From the NCBI GenBank assembly GCA_963664815.2, contig CAXXHB010000003.1, forward strand, positions 2,400,001 through 2,464,000: a DNA stretch of 64,000 bases, written 5' to 3'. The notes under the pieces are model-generated. The model did no database searches and was not told where the DNA came from. It saw only the letters and a list, made by a program, of their open reading frames with translations. The translations under genes and the position numbers were made by a program. This document shows, in pieces, positions 4,049 through 13,571 of the stretch. The stretch's first letter is position 1. Each line of letters opens with the position of its first letter. The DNA comes from Spirochaetota bacterium. Lineage in GTDB: Bacteria; Spirochaetota; UBA4802; UBA5550.

Positions 4049-4465
4049 TCAATAAAGTACCTCAAGGTCATCAGCACTCAGCGGAATTGCATTGTATTTT
4101 ATCCTTAATAATGATTTCTTTTCCTTATAGTACCATGAGGCATCAATGTTGTTTATCCCGGCAACAGAGAGAAGCCACTCCTCCTCATGCCGGTGTATCT
4201 CCTTATCCGAGGTGGCAAGTACAAGGCCGTCTTTAAGGAATTTTTCAGCCAGTTCCTTCGAAGAAAAAACCGGCGGTGATTCTGAAATAAATCTGTTTCC
4301 GAGTATTTCCTCAATGGCATTTTCAGTAAATTTTTCGTCAAACCCCAAAGCTTTGCCTATTCTCATCATCAGGAGATGCTCAGATTCTGAGATTTTATTG
4401 TCTTTTCTTGTCAGAAGCAGCAGGCCTTTAAAATAATTGCTGCCGTCAATAACGGGAATGTTCAT
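4049..4465 (-). CDS. TerB-like (tellurite resistance/co-chaperone-type) protein
   Basis: Two D-x2-I-x3-E metal-site-like motifs (KDNKISESE, SDKEIHRHE). Confidence 0.6.
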   Translation of the reverse strand: MNIPVIDGSNYFKGLLLLTRKDNKISESEHLLMMRIGKALGFDEKFTENAIEEILGNRFISESPPVFSSKELAEKFLKDGLVLATSDKEIHRHEEEWLLSVAGINNIDASWYYKEKKSLLRIKYNAIPLSADDLEVLY

Positions 4466-4756
4466 ACAGGTTTCCTCTTCATTTTCTGAAGAACTGTTTT
4501 AATCTTCAGGAGTTATATTCACCCTATATTTTTTCTATATCATAAGTTTCAAATCATATACAACTGATTCTTTGTCAAAATCAGAATTTTTATGTTACAG
4601 CATAAATTGCAGAAATAAAGAAAAAATATTTTCTGAAGGTTTAGTTATCCGGAGGAGCTTTTTTTAAGAAGAATTGCCAGTGTAATAATACCTGTAATTA
4701 TATATATTTGAAACTGAAAATCACATGGCAATTCCGTAAACTTATTTTATAGCCGA

Positions 4757-5904: not shown

Positions 5905-6804
5905 TTATCTGTCAAGAGGAATATCATCAAGAGAAATTTCATCATCAACCGGTTCAATATGAGTAAATACGACTGTATCTTTTAATTCCTTCCGGATATC
6001 CTTTTCAATATTCTCTGCTATATGGTGGGCGTCATGAACAGTCATACTCCCCGATACAAGTACATGCACAGAGACAAATCTTCGGGCTGCTCCCTGCCGT
6101 GTAAGAAGCGCATGAAACTGTATCCCCTGTTTGCGGTATACTGAAAGTACCGATTCAATCGCCTCCTGCTCCTGCGGAGACAGCGATGCATCCATCAGAC
6201 CTTCAACTGAGCGCTTTATTATCGAGAAGGCTGTCCATAAAATATTCATGGCTACAGCGAAGGCCACAATGGAATCGAGTTTCAGCCATCCGGTTAATCC
6301 AACTGCGCCAACACCACCCATTACAGCAACCGAAGTCCAGACATCGGTCATTAAATGGTGCGAATCAGCTTCAAGGGTAATCGAACGGAACTCTTTCCCG
6401 GCGGAGAGCAGAACTCTCGCTACAATAAAATTAATAACAGTGGCCAGTAACGACACGATAAGACCTGTACCGAGCTTATCAAGAGGCTGAGGATTTGAAA
6501 ACCTTTCAAATGCCGCCAGTGCAATAGCTGCTGCGGCAACCAGAATCATCAGGCCCTCAACCATGCTGGAAAAATATTCGGCTTTGCCATGTCCAAATTC
6601 ATGATTTTTATCCGGTGGAATAATCGCTATCCGCATCATAGCCATCGCCATTATTGCCGCAACCAGATTTATAATCGATTCAATAGCATCAGAGAGCAGA
6701 CCGACAGAACCTGTCAGATACCATGCTCCCGTTTTGAGAAGTAATGTAGATACTGATGCAGCAATTGAAAGCCATATATAACGGGTAAGAAAGCTTCTGT
6801 TCAT
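5905..6804 (-). CDS. cation diffusion facilitator (FieF/CDF) transporter
   Basis: SDAIES, PPDKNHEFGHGKAEY, HLMTD, C-terminal THIEP; start moved to the ATG at 6804 behind AAGGTGG. Confidence 0.9.
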   Translation of the reverse strand: MNRSFLTRYIWLSIAASVSTLLLKTGAWYLTGSVGLLSDAIESIINLVAAIMAMAMMRIAIIPPDKNHEFGHGKAEYFSSMVEGLMILVAAAAIALAAFERFSNPQPLDKLGTGLIVSLLATVINFIVARVLLSAGKEFRSITLEADSHHLMTDVWTSVAVMGGVGAVGLTGWLKLDSIVAFAVAMNILWTAFSIIKRSVEGLMDASLSPQEQEAIESVLSVYRKQGIQFHALLTRQGAARRFVSVHVLVSGSMTVHDAHHIAENIEKDIRKELKDTVVFTHIEPVDDEISLDDIPLDR

Positions 6805-7176
6805 ATTCCACCTTAACATTTTAAATTTTCCCGAAATGCCGGGAAAAGCTGCCAAAACTGATTGTTTTTCGAAGGTACAATAAAAGATCACGAATAAGAA
6901 TAAAGTATCATTCCTTATTTATTATAATTAACAAAATTAACGGACATAAGCAAATTTTATTAATTAACCATTAAGAATGACTGCAGTATGCCTATCTTTT
7001 GTACTTTAGTTATTGGCAGAACATACCGCCCGCTGAATGCGGGTTATGTACCGGCAAAGATCAGAGATTACACTGTCAGGAATATAACAGGGTCATCAAG
7101 CTTAACAACAAAAATTATTAAAGTGTTTTAGATTAAAGAACGTAAAAATAAATATTTATTATAAATAATTTTATCA

Positions 7177-8439
7177 TTACCCCAAAAAGCGGTGATTGAT
7201 ATTCATAACGTCTCTGTAGGGTATAACTCCCAGAATTTTATTATTCTCATCGATTACCGGAATAGCTCTGAATCCATATCTTATAAAAATTGAGGAAGCA
7301 TTCCGCAAAGAATCGTGCGGATTTAATGTAATTACATTTTCAATCATTATATCTTTCAGACAGACACTATCTTCTGAAAGAAGCAATTCCTTTATATCTA
7401 TTACACCCTCCAGTAAATCATTCTCATCTGTTATGTAAAGATACATTAAAACGTCTTTCTCTCTGGCAATATCATGATATTTCTCTTTAACAGATATTAC
7501 CGTTTCATCTCCACTGAATTTCAGGAAATTCACAGTTGTAAAGTTTAATATATTCTCTTCGGGATTTTCCAGTATGGACTCAATTTTAGTCCTCAGCGCA
7601 GGCTCAATAAACTTAAGAATAGACTCTCTTTCAGAAAAAGAAATTACTGAAAGCAGATCAGATGCCTGGGCAGGTGTCATATCATTTATCAGCATTGCAA
7701 CTGTATCAATACTCAGCGAAGAGAGCATTTCTCTCTGGACTTTTGGTTCAAGTTCTTCCAATGTATCAGATGCATGTTCAGGTTCAAGTTCTTTAAAAAT
7801 CTCCGTTCTCTGCTCATTGTCAAGTTCTTCAAGAATGTCTGCCATGGCTACCGGCGGTATTTCTGAAAGTTTCTCTTTAAGTGTTTTAAGCTTTAAATCT
7901 CCTTTGAAGCTGCTGATATGAAGAGGAAGAGCCTGAACATATGACCAGGGAAGGTAATCTTCCTTGATATTCAGAAAGGCAGCAATTTTTTTAAGACCTA
8001 TTCTTCTGAAGAGACCATAACTGCTGAAATCAACATCCCATACATACGCTTTACCGTTTATTACAGCAATTCTTATATCATATACAATTGAAACTTCATG
8101 TTCTTCAATATCTATTACTTTTTTATCAAGAACATAGTCTCTCAGGAGCATGTCATTTGGTTCCGGTTCTTTTTCATATGCTTCCATAGACTCAATATCA
8201 ATTACTACCTGCTTTTTTGATATTGATACAACTTTAGACATTGGTATCATTAAAGAGGGTTTTCCTAATGACCTTTTTATTATAAACTGTGTAATATGAG
8301 GGATCGTTCCCATCTCTACAATAATTACATCAGACAGTTTTCCGATTTTTTTATTATTTAATAGTACGTTAATATTTAATAATTCACTAAAAAAATAGTT
8401 TTCATCCGGAATAGTTTTCATTTTATTTTTTTCAATCAT
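7177..8439 (-). CDS. soluble PRC-barrel + MgtE N-terminal + CBS-pair protein
   Basis: Two PRC-like segments (IGKLSDV, LDKKVID), MgtE_N repeats (MADILEEL, ASDTLEEL, ASDLL), CBS pair (YLYITDE, AIPVIDE); no TM domain. Confidence 0.85.
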   Translation of the reverse strand: MIEKNKMKTIPDENYFFSELLNINVLLNNKKIGKLSDVIIVEMGTIPHITQFIIKRSLGKPSLMIPMSKVVSISKKQVVIDIESMEAYEKEPEPNDMLLRDYVLDKKVIDIEEHEVSIVYDIRIAVINGKAYVWDVDFSSYGLFRRIGLKKIAAFLNIKEDYLPWSYVQALPLHISSFKGDLKLKTLKEKLSEIPPVAMADILEELDNEQRTEIFKELEPEHASDTLEELEPKVQREMLSSLSIDTVAMLINDMTPAQASDLLSVISFSERESILKFIEPALRTKIESILENPEENILNFTTVNFLKFSGDETVISVKEKYHDIAREKDVLMYLYITDENDLLEGVIDIKELLLSEDSVCLKDIMIENVITLNPHDSLRNASSIFIRYGFRAIPVIDENNKILGVIPYRDVMNINHRFLG

Positions 8440-8489: not shown

Positions 8490-8693
8490 TCATAGTAATG
8501 TAGTAAATTTATAAAAAAGAATACAAACCAGTAAAATTAAATATATCCTGAGAATAAACAGTGAAACATTTACCATTCTTGTGGTTTTAATATGTGGTAC
8601 TGCATATTTTTTATTTATCTCACTTATCTGATGAGAAAACTTATTTATATTAGTTTTTACCGGGTTTACAATAAATTCAATTATTTTAATCAT
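8490..8693 (-). CDS. small membrane protein in the Nramp operon
   Basis: 67 aa, C-terminal TM helix (LFILRIYLILLVCILFYKF), AGAGG RBS, sits between the Nramp and CBS genes. Confidence 0.7.
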   Translation of the reverse strand: MIKIIEFIVNPVKTNINKFSHQISEINKKYAVPHIKTTRMVNVSLFILRIYLILLVCILFYKFTTLL

Positions 8694-8714: not shown

Positions 8715-9983
8715 TCAATTAAACAGTTTCGGGAAAAGGGCACTTATCCCGTACATTGTAGAAAGAATGATAATACCAATAACTATCACCGAATTTATAA
8801 TATTCTGGGATCTTGTGTTTTTATACTCACCCATAGTTTCATTATCATTTAGAAGCAAGATGAGGAATACAAGTGCTGCAGGTAAAAGTGTTACAGCTAT
8901 TACCTGAACAAAAAGCGTAATCAGAACAAGAGGCGCTCCAGGAATAAGGACAACAATTCCTGCTGATGCAAGGAGAATAAAATAGAAAGCATAAAACCAT
9001 GGTGCTTCCTTGACTTTATAGTTAAGAGAGTGCGCCCAGCCGAAGACTTCACCAAAAGCCCATGAACTCGCAAGAGATATGCATATAGCCCCAAGAAATC
9101 CTGCATCAAAGAGCCCTATGGCCAGAAATGTTCCAAGATATTTATTAATTCCCATAAGCTGTACTGCAGCCTGTGCTGCGTCATTAATATCAATACCAAA
9201 AAGCATCGTTCCTGTAAGTACAATTAAAAACGCAGCAACCAATACCGTAAAAAGAGAACCGAAAGCTGTGTCGAGTTTCCCCCAGAAAATATCTTTTTCT
9301 TTTAATCCCTTATCCACTACTGCACTCTGCTGAAAGAACAGCATCCATGGAGCAATTGTTGTCCCTATATTTGCCATCAATATGAAAAATAGTTCATTTG
9401 TAAATCCTCCGGGAAATGAAGGAATAAAACATCCCTTTATCACATTTGAAGCGGAAGGGTTAACCATAAATGCAGCAGGTATATATACAATATTTACAGC
9501 ACAGAATAACAATGCAACTTTTTCCCATGTCCAGTAACTCCCCTGCAGAACCATTATTCCCATAATCAAAATGACAATAATTACCGTAATATATGGAGGT
9601 ATTCCGAATATATTTAATGCTGCTGTCATGCCAATAAATTCTGTAACCAATGTAAGCCAGTCAGTTAATGTCAGATCTATCAGTGAAAACCAACCCCAGA
9701 AACTTCCAAATGCATGAAAAATTGCTTCAGCATGACCTCTTTTTGTAACAGCACCAAGCCTTACTGTCATCTCCTGAACATAATATGCAATAGGTCCCAG
9801 AATTATCAGAAACCATAAAAGATTATATCCATATTTTGCTCCGGTTGCAGTATAAGTTGTAATTCCACCTGCATCATTATCAGCAATCATAACGACTATT
9901 CCAGGACCTGCTATAATGAAATACAGTTTTACAGCTTTTACTGCTCTGCGGAATTTATAGTATAATTTGTGCCAGATATTCAT
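8715..9983 (-). CDS. Nramp-family divalent metal transporter, NRMT (Mg2+)-type
   Basis: TM1 DNDAGGITTY (not DPGN), QEMTVRLG, TM6 GTTIAPW with Thr instead of the Mg-excluding Met; CBS/MgtE-N partner downstream. Confidence 0.88.
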   Translation of the reverse strand: MNIWHKLYYKFRRAVKAVKLYFIIAGPGIVVMIADNDAGGITTYTATGAKYGYNLLWFLIILGPIAYYVQEMTVRLGAVTKRGHAEAIFHAFGSFWGWFSLIDLTLTDWLTLVTEFIGMTAALNIFGIPPYITVIIVILIMGIMVLQGSYWTWEKVALLFCAVNIVYIPAAFMVNPSASNVIKGCFIPSFPGGFTNELFFILMANIGTTIAPWMLFFQQSAVVDKGLKEKDIFWGKLDTAFGSLFTVLVAAFLIVLTGTMLFGIDINDAAQAAVQLMGINKYLGTFLAIGLFDAGFLGAICISLASSWAFGEVFGWAHSLNYKVKEAPWFYAFYFILLASAGIVVLIPGAPLVLITLFVQVIAVTLLPAALVFLILLLNDNETMGEYKNTRSQNIINSVIVIGIIILSTMYGISALFPKLFN

Positions 9984-10230
9984 AAAGAAATATCCTCCGC
10001 TAATTTTATAGGAAGTTATTCAGCATTTATACAATTTATGTATTACAAACTCTGTTAAATGAATTATAATACATTATGTTTCTATAAGTAGAATTTGATT
10101 AAGAATTATTTAATTTTGAAGAAAAAACCGGATGGAAAAAATTTAAATTAAAACCGATATTGAATCAATTTTTTCACGTTTCTCCTCCCATGAGATACTT
10201 TTAATACAGGAGAAACATTCTGCATAGTTA

Positions 10231-10305
10231 TTATTTTTCCCTACGCATATCCCCCCTGAAAAAGAAATTAAAAGTATAATACCCGCTACTGTCAGGGTCA
10301 GGCAT
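10231..10305 (-). CDS. putative regulatory leader peptide MPDPDSSGYYTFNFFFRGDMRREK (MgtL-like)
   Basis: GGAGG RBS 5 nt before the ATG, 24 codons, tandem TAA TAA; lies in the long 5' leader of the Mg transporter operon. Confidence 0.6.
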   Translation of the reverse strand: MPDPDSSGYYTFNFFFRGDMRREK

Positions 10306-10484
10306 ATTGCCTCCATTTATTGTTTTGTAATACTTGATTAATGTTGATAGCCTGGGTCTTTAAAATATCTCTATGCTCAATAGCAGTATTATATGAACAT
10401 CGATTATCCCGCATCAGTTTGTCTTCTTCCGTCACACTCACCAGACAGGCTAACTTTTTAATAGACTGAAATCTGAGCTTTGTT

Positions 10485-10490
10485 TGTCAA
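10485..10490 (-). promoter_or_regulatory. candidate -35 element for the Nramp operon leader
   Basis: TTGACA on the minus strand; the -10 element is not clean. Confidence 0.3.
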
Positions 10491-10718
10491 TAAAAAATTT
10501 CTAACAGAGTTGAGTACATATCAGAATGTTTTGTATTGACTTAAAGCTTAATGAGAGCTGAAATCTCAGGAAATACGCGATACACTTTTTTTATTGACAT
10601 GTTATTAGAGTTTCAGACAATATCTGTAATAAAGAAATAAGTCATGACAAAGATTAAACCACCCGGCACAGAGATATCTGCAACATAAAAATTTAAAATT
10701 CCGGTTCAGGCAGACTTT

Positions 10719-13571
10719 ATGAAAAAAAGACTGATTACTCATGCAATTATAACAATATTGTTTCTTTTCACAGCTTTCATTGCAGATACAAACTCTGCTT
10801 ATGCCGCCCGGAAAACCCGGGTTATTGTTTATCCGTTTCAGAATACCGGCAATGCCGGGTTTCTATGGTTATCAGCAGGGATAACGAATTCCATTATAGA
10901 TAACCTGGGGCGAATATCCGGAATTCAGCTTATATCCGATACAGAGAGTAAAAAAGCCATACAGGTATATCCCTGTGACACAGCCGATCTTCCCGATGAA
11001 AAAACAATAAAGAAAATCGGCAACTTCACAGGGGCAGATATCATATTTACCGGGAACTATGCAGTCACTGACAACAGTATAATTGTAGCCGCCATACTGA
11101 TAAGAGCTGATTCCGGAACATTGAAAAAATCGATAACGGTTAATGGTACAACTGAGGGGATATTTGAACTTCAGAATAAAATAGTTTTTTCACTTATGGA
11201 TGAAATCGAAAAGCTGAAAATAACCGGCACAGAACCTCCGGTATTGACTTATAATGAAAAAAAACTGATAGAAAACAGGGTTAAACCGGGGATTGCAGCA
11301 TATGAGCTTTATTCCAGAGGACTCACCATCCGTGACAGCAATCCCGGGGCCGCTCTTGATCTTTTTAAACAGGCAGTTAAAATTGATAACAACTATATTG
11401 AAGCATTAATGGAGGTTGGTTATACAGCAGGGATTATGCTTAATCTTTCCCGGGAGGCTCTTGAATACCTCGATAAAGTCGATACATTTTTTAAAAAACA
11501 GGATGAAACAGTTTCCCCGGAATATGCAGCTTTAATGAAAAATATCGGAGACGTATACAGGAGCAAGGGTAATTCAGAAAGCGCCCTGGCATATTATATG
11601 AACAGTAAAACCGTTATAGACAGACTGGGGCTGCAGACTACCTTAACAAGTGCAGACATTATGCTCAATATCGGTATTGTATCCGACAGCAAAGGTGATC
11701 CTGCCGGCGCAATGGAATACTATAATAAATGCAAAGTAATTTTAGAAAATCTGGGACTCCAGACTACCTCAAACTATGCTGACCTGATGATCAGGATCGG
11801 GTTCATCTCGGATAACAAAGGCGATCTTGACATCGCCCTGGAGTATTACATTAAAGGTAAAATAATCATGGAGAATCTCGGGCTCCAGACAAGCTCCTCA
11901 TATGCCGATCTGATTCTCAATATCGGCGCCGTGTATGAAAACAAAGGCGATCCGGGGAGTGCCATGGATTATTATATGAAGAGTAAAATTATTATGGATA
12001 ATCTTTCTCTTCAGAAAACCTCAAGCTATGCAACTTTAATAAACAACATCGGCGGTGTATACTGGAGTAAAGGAGATCTTGCCCGTGCGATGGAATATTA
12101 CACAGACAGTAAGAAAATTATGGAGAATCTGGCGCTCCAGAAGACTTCGGGCTATGCAAACTTAATGATGAACTTCGGCATTGTATATTACAAAAAAGGT
12201 GTTCTTGACACTTCAATGGAATATTACATGAAGAGTAAGGATATTCTGGATAACCTCGGGCTCAGGGAGACATCACCATATGCCGACCTGATGGTGAATA
12301 CCGGCATTGTATATTATAAAAAAGGCGATCTTAACAGTTCCATGGAATATTACAGGAAAAGTAAGGATATTCTGGACAACCTCGGGCTGCAGAGGACCTC
12401 AGGTTATGCTAACATACTAATGAACCTCGGCATGTTATATGGCAAAAAAGGCAAAACTGCTGATTCTGTTAAATATTATAATAACAGCAAAACAATAATG
12501 GACAGCCTTAAACTGGAGAATACCGCTTCATATGCCGATTTAATGATGAACTTCGGTACAGCATACGATTTCAAAGGGGATTCTTCAGGCGCCCTTGAGT
12601 TTTATGTAAAGAGTAAATCCATTATGGATACCCTCCAGCTGCAGAATACATCCTCCTATGCCGATCTTATGATGTACACAGGTTTAGTCTACGCCCGAAA
12701 AGGTGATTCTGCAGGCGCCCTTGAGCTTTACGTGAAAAGTAAATCCATTATGGATACCCTCGAACTCCGTAATACATCTTCCTACGCTGATCTTATGATG
12801 TTCACCGGTATAGTTTACATCAGAAAAGGGGATTCTGTCAGCGCTATGGATTACTACGTTAAAAGTAAATCAGTTATGGACACCCTCAAACTGCAGAAAA
12901 CATCCTCCTATGCAGACCTTTTGATGAACATCGGTTTCCTCTTTTTTAAAAAAGAGGACATTTCAGAGGCTTCGGGATATTATATGAACAGTAAAACAAT
13001 CATGGATAATCTCGAACTTCAGGAAACTTATTCCTATGACGACCTGATGATGAAGATCGGCACAGTCGCAAATATTAAAGAGGATATTGCCGGCGCAATG
13101 GATTATTACATGAAAAGCAAAGTTATTATGAATAATCTCGGAATGCAGAATACTTCTGTCTATGCATATTTAATGATGAACATCGGTATAATATATGGTA
13201 AAAAGGACGATCCCGGCAGCGCCATGGAATATTATATGGAAAGTAAAGCAATCATGGAGACACTCAGGCTTAAGAAGAACTCTGCATATGCTGATTTAAA
13301 CAATCATATTGGTCTTTTGTATGCAAAAAAGGGGGATCTTGATATCGCTCTTGAATATTTTATAAGATGTAAAACGGTCATGGACAGCCTCGGACTTAAT
13401 AAAAATTCCGATTATGCACTTTTAATGAAAAACATCGGATTTGTTTATAAAAAACAGAGAAAATCTTTTGCTGTCATGTATTATATAAAAGCAAGTGAAA
13501 TCTATGAAAGTCTTGGATTAAAGAAAGAGGCGGAAGAAACCAGCTTAAAAGCCAAAGAGATGGATTATTAG
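10719..13571 (+). CDS. secreted TolB-like/FlgO N-terminal domain + TPR repeat protein
   Basis: Signal peptide (AYA), VYPFQNTG...WLSAGI..., GADIIFTG-type domain, then 16 repeats of 42 aa. Confidence 0.88.
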   Translation: MKKRLITHAIITILFLFTAFIADTNSAYAARKTRVIVYPFQNTGNAGFLWLSAGITNSIIDNLGRISGIQLISDTESKKAIQVYPCDTADLPDEKTIKKIGNFTGADIIFTGNYAVTDNSIIVAAILIRADSGTLKKSITVNGTTEGIFELQNKIVFSLMDEIEKLKITGTEPPVLTYNEKKLIENRVKPGIAAYELYSRGLTIRDSNPGAALDLFKQAVKIDNNYIEALMEVGYTAGIMLNLSREALEYLDKVDTFFKKQDETVSPEYAALMKNIGDVYRSKGNSESALAYYMNSKTVIDRLGLQTTLTSADIMLNIGIVSDSKGDPAGAMEYYNKCKVILENLGLQTTSNYADLMIRIGFISDNKGDLDIALEYYIKGKIIMENLGLQTSSSYADLILNIGAVYENKGDPGSAMDYYMKSKIIMDNLSLQKTSSYATLINNIGGVYWSKGDLARAMEYYTDSKKIMENLALQKTSGYANLMMNFGIVYYKKGVLDTSMEYYMKSKDILDNLGLRETSPYADLMVNTGIVYYKKGDLNSSMEYYRKSKDILDNLGLQRTSGYANILMNLGMLYGKKGKTADSVKYYNNSKTIMDSLKLENTASYADLMMNFGTAYDFKGDSSGALEFYVKSKSIMDTLQLQNTSSYADLMMYTGLVYARKGDSAGALELYVKSKSIMDTLELRNTSSYADLMMFTGIVYIRKGDSVSAMDYYVKSKSVMDTLKLQKTSSYADLLMNIGFLFFKKEDISEASGYYMNSKTIMDNLELQETYSYDDLMMKIGTVANIKEDIAGAMDYYMKSKVIMNNLGMQNTSVYAYLMMNIGIIYGKKDDPGSAMEYYMESKAIMETLRLKKNSAYADLNNHIGLLYAKKGDLDIALEYFIRCKTVMDSLGLNKNSDYALLMKNIGFVYKKQRKSFAVMYYIKASEIYESLGLKKEAEETSLKAKEMDY
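11520..13535 (+). repeat. 16 tandem 126-nt (42-aa) TPR units within the CDS
   Basis: Consensus about SYADLMMNIGxVYxxKGDxxxAMEYYxKSKxIMDNLxLQxTS, counted from the translation. Confidence 0.85.

Follow-up and report, generated by a model that had tools for sequence, protein, structure and literature searches.

How might an operon for an NRAMP-related Mg2+ transporter be controlled in a spirochaete when no M-box precedes it? The question arises from a 64,000-nt stretch of a Spirochaetota genome (the window), in which an nrmT operon on the minus strand is preceded by an unannotated upstream ORF (uORF). In the accessible parts of the literature, Mg2+ control through uORFs is documented so far for mgtA, corA and mgtB in enterobacteria, and the M-box for NrmT. 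A first-pass annotation had proposed that the spirochaete leader encodes an MgtL-like peptide through which the ribosome senses Mg2+. That no M-box is visible in this leader, as the same annotation remarked, is borne out by covariance models and by our own M-box HMM: an Rfam scan of the window returned neither an M-box (RF00380) nor any other family at gathering score, and a scan of 9950–10750 at E ≤ 10 gave two chance-level matches only.

The nrmT operon and its leader ORF

The transporter gene encodes a product whose best match in the PDB is 7qia (E 2.6e-68) and whose residues DAGG and TTIA correspond to the NRMT signature DxxG-TxxA/T (signature from PMC8806188). Both this signature and the PRC/MgtE_N/CBS partner gene, an association described in PMC4072509, identify the product as NrmT, and Mg2+ transport is its probable function as judged from sequence. 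Between the two genes lies an unannotated one-helix ORF (table 1), which is also found just after nrmT in the related loci described below (L002–L081), where it is mostly 55–67 aa long. It has no match in Pfam or NCBIfam and is labelled "hypothetical" in the Atlas. In a four-sequence search, its profile matched the C-terminal ends of two NrmT proteins of 539–545 aa (E 1e-6 and 2e-4), and the ORF is probably the split-off terminal helix of longer NrmT transporters. The closest NrmT relatives (69–80% identity) span many phyla, with no near relative of the host among the matches listed, which suggests a mobile operon. Of at least 120 MotA relatives, the three that carry a taxon name are Spirochaetota, at 52–63% identity, in agreement with a spirochaete host.

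The uORF, reading MPDPDSSGYYTFNFFFRGDMRREK, is located 247 nt upstream of nrmT. Its 24-codon translation is exactly the one given in the first-pass annotation, and the GGAGG preceding its ATG is present as described, although the spacer measures four nucleotides and not five. Sites of the form GGAGG-N4-9-ATG number 18 on both strands of the window, and three of them lead ORFs of 7–45 codons. When the 735-nt intergenic region was shuffled 20,000 times with its dinucleotide composition preserved, an SD-led ORF of 7–45 aa with at least four D/E/P in residues 2–7 arose in 6 shuffles, and with at least three in 95, by a criterion set with the uORF peptide already in view; an SD-led short ORF of any kind arose in 7,324 (37%). 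The peptide contains neither His nor Cys. It has no Pfam match at E ≤ 0.1 or E ≤ 10 and no NCBIfam match, in libraries that may lack an MgtL model, and neither the peptide nor the leader DNA has a match among plasmids.

Other ORFs were noted nearby and elsewhere. An overlapping 57-aa ORF (10143–10316) was rejected as a real gene, having no SD and no match at E ≤ 10. A 47-codon ORF at 10298–10441 on the minus strand has an acidic start (VTEED) and no real SD, and its stop overlaps codons 2–3 of the uORF. Elsewhere in the window, from 57068 onward on the plus strand, a 20-codon GGAGG-led ORF, MQGQQTTSSNQYMMMSYGLR, directly precedes a cheX gene.

Table 1. Coordinates of the leader and operon features in the window, and of Nitrospirota-type leaders at related loci (locus coordinates).
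Feature	Position	Strand	Basis or remark
Shine-Dalgarno GGAGG of uORF	10310–10314	−	sequence; anti-SD duplex −8.7 to −9.3 kcal/mol
Candidate leader ORF (uORF), 24 codons, MPDPDSSGYYTFNFFFRGDMRREK	10231–10305 (10305→10231)	−	D or P at 4 of residues 2–6
Long helix, C-like: uORF 3′ half with 10195–10226 (beyond stop)	10195–10277	−	predicted, −25.6 kcal/mol
Short hairpin, B-like, GUUUCUCCU/AGGAGAAAC	10176–10218	−	predicted 11 bp, −13.1 kcal/mol
Third helix, D-like: right arm of the hairpin with pyrimidine tract	10128–10191	−	predicted, −15.2 kcal/mol
Pyrimidine tract, candidate Rho-loading site or terminator U-tract	10118–10141	−	sequence; putative function
nrmT, NRAMP-related Mg2+ (Mn2+) transporter	8715–9983	−	PF01566; SD GGAGG at 9994–9998
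One-helix ORF, 67 aa, unannotated	8490–8693	−	found in 80/80 related loci (best 80 of 585)
PRC-barrel/MgtE_N/CBS protein, usual NrmT partner	7177–8439	−	Pfam, NCBIfam
CDF cation exporter (FieF/MntE-like)	5905–6891	−	285 nt further downstream; Pfam, NCBIfam
Nitrospirota-type leader, L006	4794–4904		
Nitrospirota-type leader, L007	2495–2590		
Nitrospirota-type leaders, L010	2408–2506 and 3033–3140		
Nitrospirota-type leader, L011	1638–1745		
Nitrospirota-type leader, L012	4785–4880		
Nitrospirota-type leader, L018	348–431		
Nitrospirota-type leader, L045	4788–4886		
Nitrospirota-type leader, L049	3347–3466		

Predicted alternative folds of the leader RNA

The 216-nt leader is predicted to be more stable than all of 200 shuffles (z −3.2), and segment 10176–10276 reaches z −4.5 against its own controls (none of 300 shuffles as stable). 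The hairpin pointed out in the first-pass annotation does exist among the predicted structures, yet it is not the dominant fold, being excluded by the long helix. The pairing gain contributed by the 3′ part of the uORF reached z −3.5 in the window, versus −1.6 for mgtL and −2.6 for corL in this one test. With pairing across the ribosome forbidden, the short hairpin on the one hand and the long helix (with the third helix) on the other are predicted to be mutually exclusive, in a manner tied to the 3′ part of the uORF. Thus, a ribosome at codon 4 is predicted to leave the long helix at 0.99 and the third helix at 0.88, whereas one at codon 24, with the RNA behind it single-stranded, gives the short hairpin at 0.98 and the third helix at 0.01; at codon 20 on the full-length transcript the fold is mixed (0.35 versus 0.54). 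When pairing across the ribosome is permitted, the short hairpin never forms (probability about 0) and the switch is lost. Such pairing seems sterically less realistic; the predicted switch nevertheless rests on forbidding it. An arrangement of helix B versus helices C and D has been described for the corA leader of Salmonella and E. coli, and helices B and C for the mgtA leader (PMC5314796, PMC11552253).

On balance, we lean towards reading this region as a translation-coupled, Rho-type Mg2+ attenuator of the nrmT operon, of the MgtL/CorL type, by analogy with these systems. The uORF would be translated, and at low cytoplasmic Mg2+ the ribosome would drop off or stall at the N-terminal PDPD. 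The freed 3′ half of the uORF could then pair with 10195–10226 and the freed right arm of the hairpin with the pyrimidine tract, which would hide the putative Rho-loading site and allow nrmT to be transcribed. At high Mg2+ the ribosome would reach the stop codon, the short hairpin would form and the tract would become more exposed, such that Rho might terminate transcription in the AT-rich stretch of ~130 nt before nrmT. The principle has precedents: N-terminal stretches rich in D/E/P destabilise ribosomes, more so at low Mg2+ or in the absence of bL31 (10.1101/2021.02.02.429294), drop-off at EPDP in the mgtA leader hides a Rho terminator (PMC11282234), the same destabilisation operates in mgtQ (PMC8092293), and it has been proposed for CorC (PMC12421838).

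What lies beyond the uORF can be read in more than one way. Positions 10075–10145 contain 11 C, 3 G and nine YC dimers; the 110 nt that immediately follow the stop codon are not C-rich (C−G = −3). Of 13 YC dimers, the predicted number left unpaired goes up from 4.2 to 7.0 with the ribosome switch; the same test is flat on the corL control and therefore discriminates poorly. Over 120 nt separate the leader helices from the SD of nrmT, and the accessibility predicted for this SD changes little (0.18–0.33). The U-rich tracts that had been reported to follow the short hairpin do not follow it directly, and a terminator scan of the coding strand found no canonical terminator. The third helix is itself followed directly by U5-CUUC and may alternatively be an atypical terminator stem. 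This opens a scenario with the opposite logic, in which that helix and its U-run would form an intrinsic terminator, the short hairpin would serve as antiterminator, and full translation of the uORF, for example at high Mg2+, would turn the operon on. Induction at high Mg2+ through intrinsic ribosome destabilisation (IRD) has indeed been proposed for CorC (10.1101/2021.02.02.429294, PMC12421838). We nevertheless consider this scenario improbable: the stem is interrupted and AU-rich, the RNA it encloses measures ~40 nt, the terminator scan did not pick it up, related leaders have C-rich tracts after the stop codon, NrmT is an importer, and the uORF of one related locus, L056, accompanies an M-box, a riboswitch that turns expression off when Mg2+ is high.

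The same geometry recalls a classical attenuator, since helices 2:3, 3:4 and 4:5 plus the U-run resemble its layout, and the stretch YYTFNFFF holds two Tyr and four Phe in eight codons. Stalling at the Phe codons could then let the short hairpin act as antiterminator in response to aromatic amino acids, and a ribosome at codons 14–18 does weaken the long helix (0.34 to 0). This explanation is very improbable in our judgement, given the metal transporters downstream and related uORFs that have no such clusters. Moreover, pairing with AUUAAAAGUA accounts for part of the U-rich codon stretch, and a ribosome at the stop codon leaves the left arm uncovered, and therefore full translation would not restore termination.

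Leader ORFs and metal sensors at related nrmT loci

To place the window leader in a wider context we turned to the best 80 of 585 confirmed nrmT loci from one scan of GTDB genomes, all 80 of which carry the NRMT signature. The first-pass annotation had suggested a search for leader ORFs with MPDP-type starts; none of these best 80 loci has one upstream of nrmT, all 11 pattern matches falling elsewhere, and DNA profiles of the related leaders (nhmmer) did not match the window leader. What the search uncovered instead is a different set of peptides: 21 unannotated 5′ uORFs in 20 of the best 80 loci, beginning M-[DE]-x-x-P-S or M-[DE]-S-x-S, usually with C-rich tracts after them. Each precedes either nrmT itself or a whole porin/HMA-nrmT operon, and for many of them a sigma-70-like promoter lies immediately upstream. 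Within these best 80, the MDGGPSSH type occurs in Nitrospirota (7 loci, 8 uORFs), the MDSHS type in three loci of deltaproteobacterial lineages together with one MDDGP, and the MDSCPSR, MDTCSR and MDSGPST types in nine loci of Proteobacteria, mostly beta, including one weak case (L069). All 21 have an acidic residue (D or E) at position 2 and 20 have P or S at position 5, with synonymous variation of the codons. These counts are partly circular because the uORFs were selected by pattern; the uORFs were gathered by iterated pattern search and inspection from genomes that are not independent of one another. Four start with TTG, as does one further weak case. Among the remaining 60 loci, many are truncated or have nrmT within longer operons.

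After the stop codon, 18 of the 21 uORFs have more C than G; among control ORFs (90 taken from a pool of 521) the figure is 45 (p 9e-5). The pairing-gain test gave z < −1.5 for 7 of 21, versus 8 of 90 controls (p 0.012), with no gain in the short betaproteobacterial uORFs. Of 13 occurrences of an MgtL-derived pattern, M[DE]xxP[ST] plus SD, 9 were upstream and on the coding strand, versus 22% expected (p 4e-4), the pattern having been written after the family had been seen and one of the nine not being a member; generic short ORFs rich in D/E/P were not enriched upstream of nrmT (29/147, p 0.78). In nine Nitrospirota-type leaders (table 1), which combine a strong SD, an MD[GDAS]GP[SAGC] uORF and, in most cases, a C-rich tract beyond the stop codon, and which have no Rfam match, RNAalifold pairs the SD/start region with the 3′ part of the uORF in a stem of 14 pairs, two of them with two-sided changes (weak covariation). 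A profile of ten uORFs searched against 1.84 billion representatives returned two matches, one identical to the L010 uORF and one new sequence of the Nitrospirota type, none of them MPDP-like, a result that says little because gene callers mostly skip such ORFs.

Scored against short ORFs with the profile of the related uORFs, E. coli CorL comes out in the top 0.12%, although its sequence had no part in the model, and MgtL in the top 26%. The window peptide ranks in the top 7.9%, or 0.9% after a one-residue shift (the best of four registers). Its residue 2 is Pro, but the D-S-S codons GAC AGT AGC are shared.

These uORFs bear on the simplest alternative, in which the window ORF is untranslated or non-regulatory, a proximal promoter drives nrmT, and the hairpins are incidental or serve as RNA-stability elements. 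It would fit the finding that no homologue of the window peptide or leader turned up among related loci, leader profiles or plasmids, as well as the frequency at which shuffling produces some SD-led short ORF (above). The AT-rich stretch before nrmT also contains promoter-like hexamers (three sites versus 4.3 expected), so that nrmT might have its own promoter there, and no clear promoter was seen upstream of the uORF. We regard this alternative as unlikely nonetheless, since an SD, a PDPD start and a helix of z −4.5 on the ORF coincide before an NrmT gene, and since 20 of the best 80 of 585 loci have parallel uORFs. The attenuator reading is favoured by the joint occurrence of SD, PDPD start, a fold that shifts with ribosome position from the long and third helices to the short hairpin, and related uORFs; it is weakened by the lack of MPDP-type uORFs in all of the best 80 of 585 loci, by the dependence of the fold on the settings, and by a tract whose start is not C-rich.

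Which signal such a leader would sense is a separate matter. The M-box had been presumed to be the usual control in this setting, but it lies upstream of nrmT in only three of the best 80 of 585 loci (L011, L026 and L056), as counted by Rfam on 29 loci and by our own M-box HMM on all 80. In L056 the M-box (4426–4594) stands in tandem with a leader ORF (4680–4736; TTG start, ESHSSEYPPLPIPFPRW) that begins 86 nt from its end and precedes nrmT. Locus L025 has a NiCo-like riboswitch at 4162–4233 that, at 26.6 bits (E 8e-4), stays under the Rfam gathering score of 37, and similar motifs, likewise under the cut-off, occur in L055 (4853–4930) and L080 (4829–4902), by a model built from these three loci. 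At two plasmid loci, ArsR/SmtB or metal/formaldehyde repressors are found beside nrmT. The NiCo-like motifs and metal-sensing repressors indicate that the nrmT clade is not tied to Mg2+ alone. The same ribosome-coupled switch might thus respond mainly to Mn, Co, Ni or general ribosome stress, or serve the transport of such metals. In line with this, an M-box-less NrmT from Acidobacterium mainly moved Mn2+ (PMC4072509), EleNRMT moves Mg2+ and Mn2+ (PMC8806188), corA responds to Mn2+ too (PMC11552253), and a CDF exporter follows the nrmT operon in the window. Against it stand the three M-boxes in the same clade, the MgtE_N partner gene and a peptide devoid of His and Cys, and we consider this variant of the switch distinctly unlikely.

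Some further features of these loci were recorded in passing. In L056 a second M-box precedes a downstream porin gene, and L052 and L074 have candidate RcnR/CsoR-like repressor genes directly upstream of nrmT, as seen by eye in translations and DNA. Leaders in which CorL-like short uORFs are followed by a conserved hairpin with CGCTGA or a close variant are visible in L013, L021, L034, L035, L038, L043, L044, L075, L076 and L077; a CGCTGA-type stretch is also visible in the E. coli corA leader, where our HMM has no match at E < 2. Nine Chlorobiaceae loci (L014, L019, L022, L024, L032, L039, L041, L065 and L068) share a conserved promoter-like and leader motif 100–160 nt before nrmT, and in them an ORF of the MPGFVNVQ type overlaps the nrmT start in another frame. 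A gene that we take to encode an outer-membrane porin-like protein adjoins nrmT in L004, L010, L011, L017, L021, L023, L029, L034, L038, L043, L044, L049, L056 and L075, sometimes accompanied by a small HMA-like gene. Several candidates were set aside: an MPYPDS in L021, which lies inside the porin gene in another frame; a GTG-PFPDFY in L008, a single unsupported case; and the pattern matches L018 −504, L049 −300, L026 −774 and L073 −37, which were left out of the family. A reading of the Nitrospirota leaders as fluoride riboswitches, based on a resemblance, was rejected, as no such Rfam match was found in the 29 of 80 loci scanned.

Relation to known Mg2+-sensing leaders

Comparison with MgtL separates what stands from what does not in the original proposal. 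The MgtL sequence given there is indeed that of E. coli K-12. However, the likeness drawn from a shared PDP start and F-R pair is weak: PDP occupies residues 2–4 in the window and 3–5 in MgtL, whereas F-R is at 16–17 in both, and the two matches therefore cannot both be aligned without a gap; from the sequences, the F-R match looks coincidental. Pfam and NCBIfam, which may lack an MgtL model, give the peptide no match, and the downstream gene is nrmT and not mgtA, which encodes a P-type ATPase. What the locus does have is the MgtL/CorL arrangement of an SD-led uORF with a D/E/P-rich N-terminus before a probable Mg2+ importer gene, and the idea of ribosome-based Mg2+ sensing gains support from the switchable structure and the related uORFs. 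With mgtL-mgtA of E. coli and Salmonella the window shares a short SD-led uORF with four D/E/P among its first residues, a B-like hairpin about 12 nt after the stop codon and an alternative pairing with the 3′ end of the uORF; it differs in its target, in the offset of PDP, in length (24 versus 17 codons), in lacking later Pro codons and an Arg run, and in its spirochaete host.

The likeness to corL (ysgD)-corA is of another kind. E. coli CorL has a TTG start and reads DTPSRYWLTILSSRINS; its leader switches between helices B and C+D and has a pyrimidine tract (PMC11552253, PMC5314796), as is predicted for the window. Both peptides have a D..S followed by an aromatic pair (SSGYY in the window, PSRYW in CorL), and CorL-like profile scores are also seen for the uORFs of related nrmT loci. 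The differences are a window peptide richer in acidic residues and Pro, a lack of detected DNA similarity, and NrmT as the target; our DNA profile of the beta/delta leaders, run on the leader of E. coli corA, likewise gave no match at E < 2. In mgtQ, the uORF between mgtC and mgtB of Salmonella, ribosome destabilisation at acidic codons leads to an alternative helix that turns on an Mg2+ importer (PMC8092293), a parallel to the scheme proposed here; mgtQ, however, acts on the mgtB ribosome-binding site, whereas the window helices are remote from the nrmT SD. The M-box nrmT operons of Clostridia and Deltaproteobacteria (PMC4072509) share the transporter family and the MgtE_N partner gene with the window but not the M-box, and the accessible portion of that paper does not mention uORF control. 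One mycobacterial M-box is known to have uORFs downstream, the uORF there being the target of the riboswitch (10.1101/2025.08.04.667915). In the accessible part of the literature, MgtL/CorL-type uORFs are unreported on nrmT or beyond enterobacteria; the corA-leader alignment in the supplement of PMC5314796 may bear on their range.

Tentatively, and with confidence that falls a little short of even, we suggest that there is a class of Mg2+-sensing leader ORFs, widespread yet unannotated, of which MgtL and CorL are just the enterobacterial members. If so, the class would control nrmT operons across Nitrospirota, deltaproteobacterial lineages, Betaproteobacteria and Spirochaetota, at times alongside an M-box, and would be marked by an acidic residue 2, Pro or Ser at positions 5–7 and often a C-rich Rho site after the uORF. 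The window start MPDPDSS would then combine the PDP of MgtL with the DSS of the family. Ribosome destabilisation would offer several phyla an alternative to the M-box, in this clade the more frequent one (20 versus 3 of the best 80 of 585 loci), and could explain the regulation of many nrmT operons that have no M-box. Natural variants, with one acidic residue plus P/S in place of PDPD, could show what the ribosome senses, and bear on why CorL works with few acidic residues. A uORF switch on nrmT in a spirochaete, together with the parallel uORFs conserved in three further lineages, would widen the reach of this type of control to a new transporter family and to several phyla; since the mechanism is already known from MgtL, CorL and mgtQ, the window switch would be an extension of it and not a new principle.
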